DNA from: Methanotrichaceae archaeon
GTDB taxonomy: Archaea; Halobacteriota; Methanosarcinia; Methanotrichales; Methanotrichaceae
Assembly: GCA_963803145.1 (NCBI GenBank)
Contig: CAWDLW010000018.1
Span: 32,001-96,000, forward strand
DNA: 64,000 nucleotides
Direction of reading: 5' to 3'
Shown: positions 49,158 through 56,391 of the stretch, piece after piece
How the letters are laid out: each line of letters begins with the position of its first letter
How positions within the stretch are numbered: the first letter of the stretch is position 1
Notes under the pieces: generated by a model
What the model saw: only the letters and a program-made list of their open reading frames with translations
What the model was told of the DNA's origin: nothing
Database searches by the model: none
Position numbers and translations under genes: made by a program

Positions 49158-49475
49158 ATGGATTACCCATTCAAGAGAGGCTTCAAGCCCGATATCGAGA
49201 GAATTCGAATGGCTCTGGTGGAGGAGTTCCCAACTGAGATCCGCCAGGAGGAGGAAAAGCTTATCCTCAACTACGGCGCCATGAAGAGCATTGCTGTCTG
49301 GATCGAGAACAAGCGGCTGAACGTAGTAACGGAATCTACGCAAGGCTTAAGCGACAGCGTCATTTTAGATACAAATAAACGATTCAGAGATTTCCTTGAG
49401 AAGGCTACGGGCTACACCGCCAAGCAGAGGCTTCAGATGGCGAAGAAGGAGGTTTCAAAGGGAAAGGAGGATTAA
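49158..49475 (+). CDS. Conserved archaeal protein (DUF5611-like)
   Basis: MDYPFKRGFKPD...YGA...FRDFLEKATGYTAKQR. Confidence 0.8.
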   Translation: MDYPFKRGFKPDIERIRMALVEEFPTEIRQEEEKLILNYGAMKSIAVWIENKRLNVVTESTQGLSDSVILDTNKRFRDFLEKATGYTAKQRLQMAKKEVSKGKED

Positions 49476-49554
49476 GCTGTATCTTTCTCTTTAATGTAAG
49501 GATGATTCGTTTATCTTATCTCCAACAACCATATCGCCTGCTTTCCAGAACATT

Positions 49555-49785
49555 CCCCCAGCGAGGGGTTAGGGGCAGCCCGCGCGGCGACTGAGCGCGC
49601 TAGGAAGAACATTAGGTTTAGTTCCAAAATGCAGAGCGCCAGAAAAATAGCTTAGGCACTATCTTTTGCAGTAATTCTATTCATTTTCCACTTCACATTC
49701 CGGAGCGCCCGCGAGTCGCTTCGCTCCCGCGCTAGCTAAAACGGGGCTGTCGCTCAGTCGCCGCGACGGGCTAACGCCCTCCGGG
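49555..49785. repeat. GC-rich fold-back element
   Basis: AGCCCGCGCGGCGACTGAGCG (49577-49597) inverted at 49751-49772; outer GAGGGGTTAG / CTAACGCCCTC; internal GCGAGTCGCTTCGCTCCCGC hairpin. Confidence 0.75.
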
Positions 49786-49839
49786 ACGGTTCATATGAGG
49801 AGGTACAGGCAGGTTGGTTGACTACCCTTATTGTACAGT

Positions 49840-49869
49840 GATTTCTGATTTCCATTATAATCAGAAATT
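49840..49869 (+). other. Site A, copy 3
   Basis: GATTTCTGATT-TCCATTAT-AATCAGAAATT; the inner 10-bp arms form a perfect inverted repeat. Confidence 0.75.
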
Positions 49870-50098
49870 CCAAACTCGTTGGCTTACGTTCAGAGAATAA
49901 GAAGATCCAAAACATACTGACCGCTCTGCTCAAAAATTGGTATACATGTCATCTACCAAAACTATATCGTTAGTTACATCATTTGGCTACAATAGAAACG
50001 CATAGATGTTGCAAACCATCAAATAGGTGATGGGAATATGGTAAAATTGTTATAGTGGATATGGTACAAAATGCAAAGCATGTGGTAAGCAAGTAAGC

Positions 50099-50788
50099 TT
50101 GAATCCAAAAAGGCTGAAAGAGATAAAAGGTGGTTATACGCTAGATAATGTGATCAAGAAAGGAATCGAGATCGCTAAGCAAAATATACCTGTCTCTCAA
50201 AAATTGACTGTGCCAAAATCCGAGGCAATCAATATTCAAAAAAAGGAGACTGCCCATATTGAAGCCATTGGATTCGTTTATCTATTGCTGGATTGTTCTG
50301 GAAGCATGGAAGGCCAAAAGCTCAAACAGGCTAAGATCGGAGCATTGAAATTTGCAGGTGAAGCGATCGCTAAAGGATATCGCGTGGGATTGATCCAATT
50401 TGCATCAAGAGCCGTCCTTTCATGCGAACCCCAGCGAACACTTTCACATTTAGATAGCTCGCTAAGAGAGATACGGGCCAGTGGATCAACAAACATGACC
50501 GATGCTATCCAGTTGGCAACCCAAAAGCTTTTGGACAAAGGGCCACTTCGGAGTATATACATTGTAACTGATGGCATGCCAGATAATCCACAAACAGCTT
50601 TAGACGCCGCTCAACGAGCAAAGAAACATAGAATTGATATTATCACTATTGGGACAGATGACGCCGATGATGATTTTCTTAAAAAAATTGCCACGCGAAG
50701 AGAGCTAGGAATAAAAGTCTCACGAGATCAATTTGAGAATACAATTTCTTCGGTAGCAAAAATGTTGCCCCTACCTCCCGGCCATTAA
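50099..50788 (+). CDS. von Willebrand factor A domain protein (start uncertain)
   Basis: MIDAS LLDCSGSM, GSTNMTDAI, IVTDGMPD, ITIGT. Confidence 0.93.
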   Translation: MNPKRLKEIKGGYTLDNVIKKGIEIAKQNIPVSQKLTVPKSEAINIQKKETAHIEAIGFVYLLLDCSGSMEGQKLKQAKIGALKFAGEAIAKGYRVGLIQFASRAVLSCEPQRTLSHLDSSLREIRASGSTNMTDAIQLATQKLLDKGPLRSIYIVTDGMPDNPQTALDAAQRAKKHRIDIITIGTDDADDDFLKKIATRRELGIKVSRDQFENTISSVAKMLPLPPGH

Positions 50789-50800
50789 AGGAGTTAGATC

Positions 50801-52909
50801 ATGTCAGAAGATTGGGAGATGAAGTGGAAGGATTATTACGATATCTTAGGTGTCAAGAAGAATGCTAGTTCAGCTGAAATTGGGAAAGCTTTTAAATTAA
50901 TTTCAAAATTGTTCCATCCGGACAAGGTTGATAAGGAACTTGAAGAATGGGCAAAAACACGATTTCAGGAAATTGAAGAAGCTCGCAGAACTTTAGTAAA
51001 TAGCGAAATAAGAAAGAAATATGATTACGCGTGGGATAAACGTGATTGGGAGATGAAGTGGAAGGATTATTACGATATCTTAGGTGTCAAGAAGAATGCT
51101 AGTTCAGCTGAAATTGAGAAAGCTTTTGAACTAATTTCAAAATTGTTCCATCCGGACCTGGTTGATAAGGAACTAGAAGAATGGGCAAGAACACGACTTC
51201 AGGAAATTGAAGAAGCTCGTAGAACTTTAGTAAATAGCGAAATAAGAAAGAAATATGATTACGCGCGGGATAAACATGAAGACATTAGTACTGGACAGAG
51301 CTATGCAAGTGATTCAACAGCTAATCCTCCGAAATTCAAAGTTGATCCTCCTTACATTTACATTAGTGATTTGGAAGCTGGACAATCAAAAAATTTTCCG
51401 TTCGTTGTTAGAAATGAAGGTGGACCGTACAATGGCCAAATAGATGTCAGTAGTTCTAACTCCTGGATCAAAATAGCCGATAAATATAGGTTAGATCCTA
51501 ATGATGTACTACCTTATAAGGCTGATATAGAGGTCCACGGATCGGAAGGGGACAAAACTTACCTTGGAGAAATCGAAGTCACTTTAGAAAATGAAACAAT
51601 TCGTGTCCAGGTGGAACTTAAAACAAAACCAAAAGCCGAAGCCAGAAAAAGAGAAAAATCTCAAGCGGTTCCAAACATTAATAAATATTCAAATATTTCG
51701 AGGATATTGTCTGGGAAAAGAAAATATCTATTATCAATTCTCGCTGCACTTATGCTTATTTTCGCTGCACCCATACTTATTTTGATTTATTTTGAACATA
51801 ATAATTCATTTTCAAATTCAGTAATAATTCAATCCGATGATGGTAATAAATTGTGGAATGAAATCTTCCCCCATAATGATCTTAGGTGTGTTAGGCAGAC
51901 CAGTGACGGGGGGTATATTGCAGTAGGCGATACAAAGCCTTGGATTTTTCATTGTGCATGGTTGATCAAAACAGACATGTATGGCAACAAGCAATGGGAC
52001 AGATCATTCGGCTCTGTTGATTCTGGACGATCTGTTCAGCAAACCCGCGATGGTGGATATATTATAATCGGCAGCGCCGATTACAGTAACGATCAAAATT
52101 ATGCATGGATAATTAAGACTGATGCTAGCGGCAATAAGCAATGGGTTAAAGATTTTCGCGGACCAGATAATAGTTGGAAAGGTTTGGGAGAATCGGTTCA
52201 ACAGACTAGTGAGGGTGGTTATGTATTGCTAGTAGCACAAGAGAATGATCTATTATTGATAAAGACCGATGCTAATGGCAATGAACTGTGGTATAATAGC
52301 TTGGTAAAATATGAGAAATATGAGAATCCGCCTTATAATCAGCCCACCATTTATGGAAAATCCGTTCAGCAGACTAATGATGGTGGATATATCATAGTCG
52401 GTTCAGTAGTTTCCCAAGATACTGATAGTTTGGATGCGGGGATAATCAAGACTGATACAGAAGGCAAGATATTGTGGGATAGAACCTTCGGAGGACCCGA
52501 AATGGATGGAGGCTTTTCAGTAAGACAGACAAGTAATGGCGGCTACATAATTCTAGGTCACTCGGATTATAATGCTTGGCTGATCAAAACAGATGCCTTT
52601 GGCAATAAACTATGGAACAAATCCCTTGGAATTGATATGATGTGGTCCTGGACCGGAGATGCTCTATGGCAGACTAGGGATAGTGGCTATATTATAACAG
52701 GCAGGTCTCAAGGCAATGCATCGCTGGTCAAAACGAACGCTAATGGCGATAAAATTTGGGGTAAGACTTTTTTGAAAGATCATGATAGCTGGGGCAATTC
52801 AGTGCAGCAGACCGATGATGGAGGCTACATTATTGCTGGATGCACATTTGTAGATACAGGGAAATTTAATGGCATGCTGATTAAGACCGATGCAAACGGA
52901 AACGTGTAA
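50801..52909 (+). CDS. Two tandem J domains + Ig-like region + TM helix + extracellular beta-propeller-like repeats
   Basis: 2 x KDYYDILGV...FHPD...EIEEARRTL...RKKYD; TM YLLSILAALMLIFAAPILILIYF; 7 repeats QTxDGGYI...KTDxxGN..W. Confidence 0.92.
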   Translation: MSEDWEMKWKDYYDILGVKKNASSAEIGKAFKLISKLFHPDKVDKELEEWAKTRFQEIEEARRTLVNSEIRKKYDYAWDKRDWEMKWKDYYDILGVKKNASSAEIEKAFELISKLFHPDLVDKELEEWARTRLQEIEEARRTLVNSEIRKKYDYARDKHEDISTGQSYASDSTANPPKFKVDPPYIYISDLEAGQSKNFPFVVRNEGGPYNGQIDVSSSNSWIKIADKYRLDPNDVLPYKADIEVHGSEGDKTYLGEIEVTLENETIRVQVELKTKPKAEARKREKSQAVPNINKYSNISRILSGKRKYLLSILAALMLIFAAPILILIYFEHNNSFSNSVIIQSDDGNKLWNEIFPHNDLRCVRQTSDGGYIAVGDTKPWIFHCAWLIKTDMYGNKQWDRSFGSVDSGRSVQQTRDGGYIIIGSADYSNDQNYAWIIKTDASGNKQWVKDFRGPDNSWKGLGESVQQTSEGGYVLLVAQENDLLLIKTDANGNELWYNSLVKYEKYENPPYNQPTIYGKSVQQTNDGGYIIVGSVVSQDTDSLDAGIIKTDTEGKILWDRTFGGPEMDGGFSVRQTSNGGYIILGHSDYNAWLIKTDAFGNKLWNKSLGIDMMWSWTGDALWQTRDSGYIITGRSQGNASLVKTNANGDKIWGKTFLKDHDSWGNSVQQTDDGGYIIAGCTFVDTGKFNGMLIKTDANGNV
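50810..51277 (+). repeat. 234-bp in-frame tandem duplication of the J domain
   Basis: GATTGGGAGATGAAGTGGAAGGATTATTACGATATC at 50810 and 51044; near-identical DNA. Confidence 0.95.
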
Positions 52910-52972
52910 TCTTGTTCGCACCTAAATTAGTGTTAAGATAGAAGACCCATACTTTTAAATCAATATCGTTTA

Positions 52973-53145
52973 CTGTAGTCTCCAAGTTTTTGATTTTGCA
53001 TACAAAATATAAACAATCGGCTGATAAAATAATACTATATTTTATGATGATAGCACGAAATAGGTATACAACATTATCTAATTATGTTAAAATTAAATTC
53101 GGTTTATAAAGTTGGCGGTTGCAGCTAAAAACTTGGAAACTACAG
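52973..53145. mobile_element. MITE (173 bp) with IS701-like ends
   Basis: 19-bp TIR CTGTAGT(C/T)TCCAAGTTTTT; 7-bp TSD TCGTTTA (52966-52972 / 53146-53152); no ORF. Confidence 0.9.
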
Positions 53146-53436
53146 TCGTTTAGTTAAATATTCAAGCTTTCTGTAAAAATGAAGCGAAGTGGTATCATCT
53201 CATTTTTATGGCACGGCCTGGTATTTTAATCTCTAGTTTTAGGCAGTAGAATAAGATTCTCGTATTTTATATTTATATAACAAAATGGTGATTTTTTAAG
53301 CACATATTTCATTACTTGCCTGAATTTTTGATCCAAGACATATAGTAAACTATAATTACCAATTGCTATACTTGCTTTCCATTAGGATAGAGACGCTCTA
53401 TAAACGAGCGATGATTAGATGGAAAAAGAAGTAACT

Positions 53437-53628
53437 ATGTCCACAAAATTCAATCATTGCCCAAACTGAGGGAGAATACCAGGCAAAAGCCTCTTTGGCG
53501 GTACACATATTAACATATTTGAATGTAAAAAATGCGGCTCTTGCTATTGTAATAAGTGTGGTGATGGGCGATGCCCTAATTGTGGTAGCAGGGAGAACAA
53601 GAAGGCTGGAGAAGTTTATGAGAGATAA
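53437..53628 (+). pseudogene. 63-codon multi-CxxC zinc-finger gene with in-frame TGA at a Cys position
   Basis: MSTKFNHCPN*GR...ECKKCGSCYCNKCGDGRCPNCGSRE...; TGA at 53467-53469. Confidence 0.75.
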
Positions 53629-53640
53629 GGAGATAGGACT

Positions 53641-53757
53641 ATGGAGACACAAACTAAGGGGATATTAGCCCTTGCCCTGTTTAGTATTGGGACCATATCC
53701 ATGTGGCGGCAAGCATTTCGATCAACTATAATTAATGTTGCTCCTCCTCAGAGGTGA
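53641..53757 (+). CDS. 38-aa putative membrane peptide
   Basis: METQTKGILALALFSIGTISMW...; fills the gap between the Zn-finger and TPR genes. Confidence 0.4.
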   Translation: METQTKGILALALFSIGTISMWRQAFRSTIINVAPPQR

Positions 53758-53763
53758 TCAAAA

Positions 53764-54333
53764 ATGGGATTCCTAGATAAGCTCAAAGGCAAAGAAACAA
53801 AGAAGGATAAACCTCAAACCGAAGCGACAAACGCAAATTCCTCATCTGAATCAAAGAGCGATCCCTACGATTTGAATCTTGATGGAGTTGACAGAGGATA
53901 TTCAGCCGTGGTTAGAAGAGATAAACAAGGAAAATCAAGTGGTGACTGGCAGCTAGATGGCATTGGGATCGTTTATCATGGGGGCAGTATTGATGAGGCC
54001 ATCGAGTGTTTTAATAAGGCATTAAGAATTGACCTCGAAGACCAAGGCGCTTGGTTAGGCAGAGGATACTGCCTGATGTCACTTGGGGTCTATGACAAAG
54101 CAATTGCTTGCTTCAAAGAGATCATTAAACTAGATCCAGATGTAGTTGCAGATTGTTGTTTTGCAGAGGCATGGAACAAGATGGGGCAATGTTATGAGGC
54201 TATGGGTAACGAAGGAGAAGCAAGAAACGCTTATTCTAAGGCTAGTGAATGGGGACACACAAAAGATGGCGATACATATCCTGAACCATATCCTGGGTTA
54301 GACAGAAGCCCTCTAAAAAAGATCCCTGATTAG
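53764..54333 (+). CDS. Cytoplasmic TPR protein
   Basis: MGFLDKLKG start; DEAIECFNKALRID..AWLGRG; AEAWNKMGQCY; GAGGTGA RBS. Confidence 0.9.
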   Translation: MGFLDKLKGKETKKDKPQTEATNANSSSESKSDPYDLNLDGVDRGYSAVVRRDKQGKSSGDWQLDGIGIVYHGGSIDEAIECFNKALRIDLEDQGAWLGRGYCLMSLGVYDKAIACFKEIIKLDPDVVADCCFAEAWNKMGQCYEAMGNEGEARNAYSKASEWGHTKDGDTYPEPYPGLDRSPLKKIPD

Positions 54334-54704
54334 ATCATCCAACGAATTTGAGTATGTATATCTTCTTTTTTGTATCTTCGGAGCCAGAATACTATTTTAT
54401 AAATACCTTCTTCGATTGCAAAGGCATGGGTTGGCGCTCCAGATTCTATGCCTATACAAACAACGCCCAGTGCTATTATAGATGTGTTATTCACCGCGTA
54501 GCTAAGAATTTCAAGAAAGATACCAAAAGAGATTATTTGGGGGCGCATAATGGCGTAGGTTACGGCGCCATTTCAGTCAAGTATATCCATTCAGGGCCTT
54601 CATTCAATACGAGTTCATATCTTCAGCAGCGCCGCACACCAGACAAATAATCCATGCACCTCCGATTCTTTTATTATTGTTGTAGTAGTATCAATTGGCA
54701 TCAT

Positions 54705-54848
54705 TTAACTCATTTGTTTTCCACATATTTTGCATTTAGAGCCATATTTATAAACGCAATTCTTACAAGCAAAATGTCCATTTAGACATACTTTTCCACC
54801 AGAGACTTCTGTCTCTTTTCCGCAAATATCACATGTTCTTTTTGGCAT
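54705..54848 (-). CDS. 47-aa stand-alone C3HC4 RING-finger protein
   Basis: MPKRTCDICGKETEVSGGKVCLNGHFACKNCVYKYGSKCKICGKQMS = C-x2-C-x11-C-x3-H-x2-C-x2-C-x7-C-x2-C; GAGGG upstream. Confidence 0.85.
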   Translation of the reverse strand: MPKRTCDICGKETEVSGGKVCLNGHFACKNCVYKYGSKCKICGKQMS

Positions 54849-54920
54849 ATCTGCATCCCTCAAAATATTTATATTTAAATTGTATTAGTCCATAGATGCC
54901 GGTTCTGTATATGCGAATAT

Positions 54921-54945
54921 GTGCGGGGAATAAGACCCCCGCACC
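54921..54945 (+). repeat. Hairpin B, copy 4
   Basis: GTGCGGGGAATAAGACCCCCGCACC; about 30 upstream nt also resemble copy 3 (CAT.GAT.C.GGTTCT.TAT). Confidence 0.72.
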
Positions 54946-55013
54946 AACTATGCTAGGCATGACCTAAAGCACACTAACTAGCCGGATCGAGGTAATTCAT
55001 GTTCAGGCCAACT

Positions 55014-55153
55014 TCACCTTATAATGGTACCGCATATTTTACATATATTACCGTGGTTTTTTCGGCAACTTTCGCATGCAAAATGGCCCTTGGCACATAC
55101 TCCGCCGCCCCATGCCTCTCTCTTCCGCATATATCACATTTTCTTTTTGTCAT
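55014..55153 (-). pseudogene. Second C3HC4 RING paralog, frameshifted in an (AG)4 run
   Basis: MTKRKCDICGRE / AWGGGVCAKGHFACESCRKNHGNICKICGTIIR*; 140 nt versus 144 nt for the intact copy. Confidence 0.82.
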
Positions 55154-55224
55154 GTTTTCATTCCCCTCATACGTTATATCTAGACTACATTTCTTTTATA
55201 ACTATAAACTAGATACTATAAACA

Positions 55225-55584
55225 TCAGGTGGCACCAGGTTTTATAACTTCTTCACCATTCCATTCTTTGGCTAGCTTTAAATGCCATGCAAGTTTATCA
55301 GGCACTTTCCTAATATCGCCCTCTAAATTAGCTATTAAAGCTATACGATCACGTTTAAATTCTATTCCATTCACAAAATCGTAAGCATAAAAATATTTAG
55401 TCTTTCCAGTTTCAGGATCGCTCGGCTCTATCCAATATAAAGCCGGTAAACATACGTTATATTTTTCTAGCAATTGTTTTTCATCATCAGTCAAAGTTAA
55501 TTTTGCATTCAATACAAATTCCAAACCCGATCCAGATAAGATGCCTTTCTTTGAGTTTTGCGTCCTGCGAAGATGCAATTCCAT
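55225..55584 (-). CDS. Hypothetical protein
   Basis: MELHLRRTQ...FVLNAKLTLTDDEKQLLEKY...WNGEEVI; GAGG RBS. Confidence 0.7.
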   Translation of the reverse strand: MELHLRRTQNSKKGILSGSGLEFVLNAKLTLTDDEKQLLEKYNVCLPALYWIEPSDPETGKTKYFYAYDFVNGIEFKRDRIALIANLEGDIRKVPDKLAWHLKLAKEWNGEEVIKPGAT

Positions 55585-55949
55585 ATAGACCCTCAATTGA
55601 TTTTTTAGGCATGTTCAACCTCAATTAAAAGCGGCAAACTTACCTCGCCGAAGTATTACAGTGTGGGCATTTTCCATTTCTCAGGTGTGTAGCATACCCA
55701 AGCTTCACAACGCGGACAATATTTTATACTTATCTCACGTTCTTCGCTACAGTAAAAATACTTATGTCTCATATTTCTCCCCTCTTGATGTAAAATATTT
55801 CCTTTTTGGGTTTATCAGTAATAATACGGTATATTTAAACCTACGCTAATCTAATTATCTATAATAAAAGTATGATAAAAACTCATTTATATAAAATCCT
55901 TACCTGGGGTAGAATAGCTGGAATATACACGTTGATCCTACCGCCTTGA

Positions 55950-56063
55950 GTATGTATAACCTGTAAACTTTCCTTTTATTTTTAGCGTCTTCAAAGCCAA
56001 GATACTGTTTTTATAAACATCTTTTCGACCTACAAAGGCATGGATTTGCGCTCCGGATTATAC
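55950..56063 (+). repeat. Element C, copy 3
   Basis: GTATGTATAACCTGTAA...TTTTTATAAACATCT...AAGGCATGGATTTGCGCTCCGGATTATAC. Confidence 0.85.
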
Positions 56064-56391
56064 AGTGCATTTCTATTTTAGCCGCTGTCGAAAAATCTCT
56101 ATCGGTCAATTATCGAAAATTCGTTCTATAAAGTATATGAACGATAAGTTAGGAAGAGGGCTAGCTAGGTCAATCTTTAAGAATTCTGCGAGTTGTATAA
56201 CCTGCTACGGTTAATTGGCGAGGTGAGTATGTTTAACATCAAAATAGCTAAGAGTCTGAAGTTCCTTGCCTCTCCAAATCCCATACCTTGAGCATTTTAT
56301 CCCATAATTCGATACCGTATCGTAAAAGCCGAGGGAGCGCTTCATATCAACATGGTCGGAATACGAGCCAATTCGCTTCTTAGGATGTTGA

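Follow-up and report, generated by a model that had tools for sequence, protein, structure and literature searches.

A 47-residue open reading frame on the minus strand of a Methanotrichaceae contig has the look of a stand-alone C3HC4 RING finger, and it raises the question of whether so small a frame is a gene, to what fold and family its product belongs, and whether a RING motif in a methanogen has anything to do with ubiquitin-type protein tagging. We analysed this frame, here called RING A, within the window, by which we mean the whole 64,000-nucleotide stretch of DNA under study, and in related loci from other genomes and metagenomes. Translation of positions 54705-54848 gives exactly the residues quoted in the original prediction, and the eight zinc ligands with RING spacing claimed there were confirmed in the protein product (P0001) as C6, C9, C21, H25, C28, C31, C39 and C42, spaced C-x2-C-x11-C-x3-H-x2-C-x2-C-x7-C-x2-C. 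RING fingers follow the consensus C-x2-C-x(9-39)-C-x(1-3)-H-x(2-3)-C-x2-C-x(4-48)-C-x2-C, which P0001 satisfies. The ORF table opens the frame at a TTG, five codons 5' of the ATG at 54848; we took this ATG as the start because 46 of the 59 aligned relatives begin at the same methionine, the usual start of the family.

Comparison of the window with a locus from a sister population (L028) revealed two differences in the 144 nt of RING A (1.4%), both of them synonymous. Around the gene, the same comparison gave 6.4% for copy B, 7.9% for the spacer between the copies and 13-14% for the outer flanks, the adjoining segments ranging from 6.4 to 13.9%. The dN/dS ratio of RING A (Nei-Gojobori), computed against homologues and loci with unsaturated dS, was 0.14-0.21, and these substitution patterns indicate that the gene is under purifying selection. 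Together with the 91 profile matches described below, they bear out the proposal of a real, unannotated, stand-alone small protein: RING A is a genuine gene of a methanogen that had previously escaped annotation. The AT-rich, TATA-like box upstream of it (Table 1) has the same sequence in the aligned DNA of the window, L028 and a further sister-population locus, L029, and is a possible archaeal promoter of RING A.

The AlphaFold2 model of P0001, built with the family alignment, reached a pLDDT of 90.9; along with three short strands it has a helix, whose first residue is ligand 5. When the PDB was searched with Foldseek, no match reached E ≤ 0.001, as expected for 47 residues, and among the matches listed nearly all were RING-type fingers (RNF8, TRIM21, Ring1B, PML, TRAF6 and SIAH1), with 44-47 residues, rmsd values of 2.3-2.9 and probabilities of up to 0.99. 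VIA-align placed the PML RING, the p62 ZZ domain and the TRAF3 RING at Z 4.4-4.6. A scan of 48,161 chains that was independent of Foldseek returned nearly only cross-brace fingers (RING, ZZ, B-box and PHD), with Z-scores of 4.9 for alpha-COP, 4.4-4.5 for the Nbr1 and p62 ZZ domains and 4.4 for the TRAF3 RING; the CBP ZZ domain was returned as well. The top row in both VIA runs was a Saccharolobus 30S subunit chain at Z 5.5, less than one Z unit from the RING and ZZ rows, and the small size of the domain keeps all structural Z-scores for P0001 low (at most 5.5). At the level of prediction, the model and the full-length superpositions on RING, ZZ and PHD fingers favour a cross-brace over two sequential zinc ribbons, the fold against which the RING assignment had originally been set, and P0001 is thus predicted to be a RING/ZZ-like cross-brace finger.

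Profile models lead to the same neighbourhood of families at scores below their thresholds. No RING Pfam model exceeded its curated cut-off, either for P0001 or for ten further members checked individually; the best scores of P0001, in bits against the cut-off, were 18.7/29.3 for Sina_RING, 18.2/22.4 for Prok-RING_2, 16.6/27.9 for zf-RING_5 and 12.0/27 for Prok-RING_4. At E ≤ 0.01, members of the 59-sequence alignment matched zf-RING_5 (25), Sina_RING (21), zf-C3HC4_3 (16) and Prok-RING_4 (11). A whole-genome scan with the Prok-RING_4 model, PF14447, misses the RING A frame.

The original prediction had spoken of an orphan RING family, a view that did not hold. A word-indexed homologue search with P0001 gave no match; this null reflects a limit of the method, because an exhaustive profile search recovered 91 representative proteins or clusters at E ≤ 1e-3 among 1.84 billion. 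Scanning metagenomes with a 10-row alignment (A6) yielded 206 loci with confirmed relatives, 80 of which were retained. In six-frame searches, relatives were present in 3 of 105 genomes of the order, and sampling of the phylum gave 5 of 401 genomes. Among species-representative genomes there were six true relatives, which belong to Methanotrichaceae (two), Altiarchaeota, Bathyarchaeia, Ca. Lithacetigena and Aminicenantes; two further matches in this set turned out to be unrelated long proteins. The collection of viral contigs produced 210 pattern matches, none of which was confirmed, and so gave no sign of a viral home. The family, which we refer to as mini-RING, is widespread in archaea and bacteria but very patchy in its distribution. 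No NCBIfam model names it and the sources consulted hold no name for its members; our literature search returned nothing on a RING finger in Methanothrix and nothing relevant on Prok-RING.

Members are typically 42-60 residues long. In the alignment of 59 sequences C6, C21, C28 and C39 are invariant, and R4, C9, G10, H25 and F26 are conserved in at least 90%. The family conserves a basic N terminus (K3 in 27 and R4 in 55 of the 59). Conservation is also strong for a G-G-K hairpin, for the proline that follows ligand 7 and for a Leu-Arg/Lys at the C terminus. The last two columns hold Leu in 47/59 and Arg or Lys in 47/59, and in 46 of the 55 members parsed the chain stops exactly five residues past ligand 8; the tail of P0001 departs from this pattern with Met-Ser. 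The commonest ligand patterns are CCCHCCCC (39/59), CCCHCCCD (11/59) and CCCHCDCC (3/59). Cysteine is replaced by Asp or His at ligand 6 (8/59), at ligand 8 (15/59) and once at ligand 2, and at no other ligand. Joint replacement at ligands 6 and 8 would fit a cross-brace, although the four members of 59 with non-Cys residues at both are too few to argue from. The C-terminal ligand pair is missing in about a third of the 79 representative matches examined, mostly by truncation or frameshift, a share that is inflated by clustering at 50% identity; frequent decay nevertheless seems typical of the family. Longer or fused forms yielded a single match, the 220-aa P0107, which has no Pfam domain. In the long representatives P0076, P0087 and P0090 the finger lies at one end, and no informative fusion partner was found in them. 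Several members are fused or frameshifted tandem copies, as in P0028, where the second copy is out of frame. The gene of an Aminicenantes locus (L024, 5001-5123) is truncated after ligand 6.

All three RING copies of the window lie on a low-GC insertion (Table 1). Synteny with two congeneric genomes (tblastx; G002 and G001) stops at 49463/49478 and restarts at 56391/56392, leaving a gap of just 15-78 nt at this site in the congeners; we therefore regard 49.48-56.39 kb as an insertion, an island that tblastx did not find in either of the two congeners. The insertion is poorer in GC (0.36-0.42) than its flanks (0.45-0.53).

Table 1. Features of the RING island and its surroundings (window positions unless a contig is named).
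Feature	Position	Strand	Description
RING copy A	54705-54848	-	Intact 47-aa gene (P0001), stop codon included
RING copy B	55014-55153	-	Paralog 165 nt upstream of RING A, broken by a 4-nt deletion
RING copy C	50045-50098	+	Decayed 18-codon remnant of the C-terminal half
AT-rich TATA-like box	54866-54879	-	18-31 nt 5' of the RING A ATG
Hairpin	54921-54944	-	Perfect 9-bp, G+C-rich, within the 165-nt spacer between RING B and RING A
Recurrences of hairpin segment	G000:C15:403955-404007; C23:207907-207961; C16:51646-51705		
Low-GC insertion	49480-56390		About 6.9 kb, carries all three RING copies
119-aa protein, unnamed ~125-aa family	55225-55584	-	Family recurs directly beside RING genes
CPxC...CPxC zinc-ribbon-like ORF	55640-55772	-	38-aa ORF and out-of-frame tail, read by eye
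TPR protein, 189 aa	53764-54333	+	Convergent with RING A
vWA-domain protein	50099-50788	+	PF00092, 71.3 bits
702-aa protein, two tandem J domains	50801-52909	+	TM segment and about six repeated beta-rich units
Direct repeat, ~115 nt	54337-54448 and 55935-56062		76-79% identity

The paralog upstream of RING A, which the original prediction had taken to keep all eight ligands, exists at the distance given, but in the window it is frameshifted; the sister-population loci L028 and L029 hold it intact. RING B is split here into two overlapping ORFs, 55019-55153 (44 aa) and 55014-55130 (38 aa), by a 4-nt deletion relative to its homologues, and its eight ligand codons are readable only across the frameshift. 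In L028 and L029 the copy encodes 47 aa with Asp as its eighth ligand, and in a further locus, L030, it is degenerate. The two public DNA contigs that cover this site, from runs X2 and X4, both have four extra bases at 55116/55122. The deletion is known from one assembly of the window strain and is possibly an assembly error. A TAA precedes RING C, whose reading frame continues into the vWA ORF. As a whole, the spacer that separates RING B from RING A folds no better than shuffled sequences (z -0.41). A segment of about 55 nt around its hairpin (54880-54945, minus strand) recurs at three other sites of the genome with 80-89% identity; it may be either a small repeat element or a terminator-like signal common to these sites. 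Scans of the RING region for tRNAs and Rfam families returned nothing relevant, so that a tRNA or known RNA was rejected as an explanation of the conserved 3' flank of RING B.

In both L028 and L029 a 126-aa gene, RING B, RING A and a 313-aa TPR gene follow each other on one strand; by comparison with these loci, the TPR gene of the window appears inverted and shortened. The DNA of RING B and RING A is 87-92% identical between the window and these sister populations. The 125-aa-family gene of L028 (38-418) and L029 (2865-3245) is strongly diverged, with 27% identity to window 55225-55584, and DNA homology between the window and either locus begins immediately past the stop codon of this gene. 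A frameshift apparently separates the two knuckles of the zinc-ribbon ORF. In a Bathyarchaeia locus (L022, 6360-6746, minus strand) a 128-aa protein that adjoins the RING gene has a similar motif at its N terminus. The two arms of the direct repeat flank the block of zinc-ribbon, 119-aa, RING B and RING A genes and may be a trace of the insertion or duplication of that block. As far as the alignments go, it looks as though the partner gene of the 125-aa family had undergone cassette replacement. The two J domains of the 702-aa protein are near-identical and correspond to a 234-nt tandem duplication (50810-51277, 95% identity). PADLOC matched no island protein, so that no known defence system was recognised.

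The neighbours of mini-RING genes were surveyed at 87 loci with crude ORF calls, made without a gene caller, and single-linkage BLAST clustering. Of 78 loci, 23 have a TPR-like protein at rank -1, and 14 of 72 have one at rank +1 (37/150 together), compared with 9 of 317 positions at ranks two or more away. Pfam assigned 16 TPR and 4 ankyrin proteins among 77 upstream genes; the 85 other immediate neighbours included 7 zinc-ribbon, 6 DZR and 4 vWA proteins, 2 M48 peptidases, 1 Hsp70 and 1 integrase, and PADLOC recognised an AriA/Old/GajA-type ATPase in 1 of these 85. The vWA cluster to which the window protein belongs occurs at 8 of the 87 loci, and in an Altiarchaeota locus (L021) a vWA gene, a 144-aa ORF, a TerY_C gene and the RING gene stand in a row. 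The unnamed family of about 125 aa takes 10 of the 150 immediate positions and lies beside a RING gene in 12 of the 87 loci. It has no Pfam family, and databases name its members only 'hypothetical'. The model of the 119-aa protein reached a pLDDT of 85.5 and found no fold match in the PDB (Foldseek best TM ≤ 0.30; VIA best Z 4.6); an ESM Atlas search with this protein returned only unnamed clusters, and prediction of its complex with the RING and two Zn gave no verdict (score 0.00). E1, E2 and JAB proteins are absent among the 25 families listed for the 77 upstream and for the 85 other neighbours, and no helix-turn-helix protein or other regulator recurs in these lists. The neighbour classes are heterogeneous and do not single out one common partner of the family.

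The reading that we prefer, to which we would give about even chances, is that RING A encodes a zinc-stabilised adaptor of the mini-RING family and not an E3, its function being inferred. According to this proposal RING A would be functional, and its 47-residue product would bind two zinc ions in a cross-brace fold of the RING/ZZ type and belong to a family that spreads by horizontal transfer between anaerobes, archaeal and bacterial. The gene would have come in on the island of about 6.9 kb, in one block with RING B, a member of the 125-aa family and a TPR gene. Decay or rearrangement would later have affected RING B, the third RING copy, the zinc-ribbon gene and the TPR gene, with RING A kept under purifying selection. 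ZZ fingers, like many RING fingers, serve as peptide-binding modules, and the finger would likewise bind proteins or peptides. Close operonic pairing suggests that the product of the adjacent gene is its physical partner, which would usually be a TPR or ankyrin scaffold and otherwise a vWA, zinc-ribbon or 125-aa-family protein. The adaptor would recruit no E2 for ubiquitin-like conjugation; we favour this because none of the four E2 families searched was found in the genome and the positions that correspond by motif to E2 contact and linchpin are not conserved.

Alternatively, RING A might be a zinc-finger regulator of the CPxCG type that binds DNA or RNA and controls neighbouring genes in the manner of Brz of Halobacterium, a reading that we consider unlikely. 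The CPxCG class comprises proteins of less than 100 aa whose two Cys/His patterns, of which one or both are CPxCG-like, are separated by 7-40 residues, and about 8% of small archaeal proteins are said to carry the motif (PMC2253796). P0001 conforms to this pattern with CxxCG at 6-10 and 39-43 and with C21-x3-H25 and C28-x2-C31 in between; as a small protein with two CxxCG patterns, it falls within that definition. The basic, conserved N terminus (K3 27/59, R4 55/59) would suit nucleic-acid binding, five of the 59 members weakly match the HVO_2142 zinc-finger family, and the best single VIA match is a chain of the ribosomal small subunit. However, the class is defined by a pattern and is not a family of homologues, and both the predicted fold and the profile matches point to RING and ZZ fingers, which mostly bind proteins or peptides. 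The neighbours, moreover, are scaffolds (TPR, Ank, vWA) and do not form a fixed regulon, and the neighbour families listed contain no recurrent helix-turn-helix protein or other regulator.

The link to ubiquitin-type E3 function that the original prediction implied found little to stand on. A true RING-type E3-like factor would pass a ubiquitin-like modifier, by way of SAMP/UbaA or of an unrecognised E2, to targets presented by the TPR or vWA neighbour, and we consider this a rather poor prospect, somewhat poorer than a Brz-like regulator. The RING-like predicted fold and the eight ligands are what such a factor would have; the genome contains one ThiF-type E1-like gene; and TPR with RING or U-box recalls the architecture of CHIP. 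Profile searches of the genome, whose completeness is 99.3% and contamination 6.8%, gave no match at E ≤ 1 for UQ_con, Prok-E2_A and Prok-E2_D and one match of 11.3 bits, below the cut-off, for Prok-E2_B, in a comparison whose control genomes held no true positive; these four families are what the search covered. None of the four came over its cut-off in so complete a genome, and the 25 listed neighbour families include no E1, E2 or JAB.

Across the family as a whole, the residues at the presumed E2 interface point the same way. E3 activity of srfp needs I30 (after the first Cys pair), W58 in the helix and the linchpin R69 (PMC5654768). The mini-RING columns equated with I30 and R69, by motif and not by superposition, are poorly conserved. 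After the first Cys pair, the contact column holds N in 11, V in 10, A in 10, K in 9, I in 5, S in 5 and C in 3 of the 59 members and is hydrophobic in only 25; P0001 itself has I8, which matches srfp I30 (PMC5654768) and favours an E3. The linchpin column after ligand 8 holds Gly in 29 members, including P0001 (G43), Lys in 11 and His, Gln, Asn and Asp in 3 each, and the column that follows it holds Lys in 21 and Thr in 16. A RING motif in a methanogen is no evidence for an E3.

The sole ubiquitin-domain protein found (PF00240, 100.8 bits, E 1.3e-28) has a signal or TM segment and lacks a Gly-Gly end, which also speaks against an E3. This 337-aa protein is encoded in the methanogen's own genome (G000:C25:48868-49077, minus strand; locus L109, 775-1788, minus strand), provided that the contig belongs to that genome, as we assumed. 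The segment is N-terminal and hydrophobic; next comes the ubiquitin domain, of a eukaryote-like fold, and then a Cys-containing tail of about 240 aa. The protein is probably secreted, and its gene adjoins ORFs that look, by eye, like transposases.

RING A might also be a passenger on a decaying mobile island and have no present function. RING B, RING C and the zinc-ribbon ORF, three of the island's four genes for small zinc proteins, are broken; relative to L028, the TPR gene has been inverted and shortened; the C-terminal ligand pair is missing in about a third of the 79 representatives examined, and two congeners lack the island altogether. We nevertheless hold a functionless remnant to be very unlikely: RING A has accumulated just two synonymous changes in 144 nt against L028, where its flanks differ by 6-14%, its dN/dS is 0.14-0.21 across the clade, it retains all eight ligands, and L028 and L029 share its TATA-like box. 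Despite this signal of selection, RING A could be on its way out, for the island around it is visibly decaying.

Weakest of all, and in our view highly improbable, is the proposal that TPR-adjacent mini-RING genes form a two-gene, CHIP-like prokaryotic module with the TPR or vWA gene, in which a client or chaperone tail would be bound by the TPR (or vWA) protein and the RING, as an E2-independent, E3-like coupler, would pass the client to an E1-only system (UbaA/SAMP) or directly to the PAN-proteasome; if true, the RING would be the specificity factor that protein tagging has so far lacked in archaea and bacteria without an E2, and it would have spread horizontally.

Returning to the adaptor reading, we compared the mini-RING family with systems already described. 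CHIP/STUB1 is a co-chaperone E3 in which TPR repeats are joined to a U-box, a RING-like domain without zinc. The mini-RING loci resemble it in that a RING-type finger accompanies a TPR scaffold; the island adds a double J-domain protein, and Hsp70 occurs once among 85 neighbours; unlike in CHIP, scaffold and finger are here encoded by two separate genes, no E2 was found and the finger is predicted to bind zinc, so that the likeness is an analogy only. The CPxCG/Brz class resembles mini-RING proteins in its size of less than 100 aa, its two CxxCG patterns and its being often overlooked by annotation; its members are mostly single-zinc ribbons that possibly bind nucleic acids, whereas mini-RING proteins have eight ligands and a RING-like predicted fold. 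Two NCBIfam models match part of the family at E ≤ 0.01 and P0001 not at all, namely NF045648 (MbdU, a metal-binding double selenoprotein; 20/59, best 3.2e-05) and NF041916 (RING_SCO0854; 8/59, best 7.4e-05).

ZZ domains, such as those of p62/SQSTM1, PRT1, CBP/p300 and Nbr1, are two-zinc cross-brace fingers of about 45 residues, as P0001 is predicted to be, and P0001 aligns with ZZ structures at Z 4.3-4.6 and rmsd 2.2-2.8 over 40-42 residues, equalling its RING matches. As readers of peptide ends they fit an adaptor role. In contrast to ZZ domains, the mini-RING family has C-x3-H as its second ligand pair, and its profile matches point to RING; no ZZ Pfam family was listed for P0001 even at E ≤ 10. 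Prok-RING_2 (PF14445) and Prok-RING_4 (PF14447) are prokaryotic, RING-like binuclear treble clefs, the fold predicted for the mini-RING family as well, and share its sporadic distribution; Prok-RING_4 matches 11 of the 59 mini-RING members at E ≤ 0.01 (best 2e-06), with P0001 below the cut-off. The Prok-RING families reportedly go back to Burroughs, Iyer and Aravind in 2011, are said to be mostly tied to E1, E2 or JAB proteins or to be membrane-linked, and reportedly do not all serve ubiquitin functions. In P0001 and the ten further members checked, the mini-RING family stays below the curated cut-off of every model tested, and its gene context is its own.

The closest archaeal counterpart is srfp, the E3 of Caldiarchaeum subterraneum and of Asgard ubiquitin operons, which is likewise small, essentially stand-alone and predicted to be a cross-brace RING (PMC5654768). 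It differs in being a RING-H2 finger (C3H2C3) in an operon with ubiquitin, E1, E2 and Rpn11 (PMC5654768), as opposed to the C3HC4 pattern of the mini-RING family, which shows no ubiquitin operon among its listed neighbours and is accompanied by TPR, vWA and unnamed 125-aa-family proteins. Archaeal RING fingers have so far been discussed almost only within such eukaryote-like ubiquitin operons. The mini-RING genes show how many small zinc proteins gene callers overlook, and they make a minimal RING-fold protein of 45-55 residues, as predicted here, a sizeable mobile family in E2-less anaerobes among both archaea and bacteria. Their reproducible partner pattern (TPR/Ank, vWA and the 125-aa family) offers a system in which to ask what RING fingers do before or outside ubiquitin signalling.
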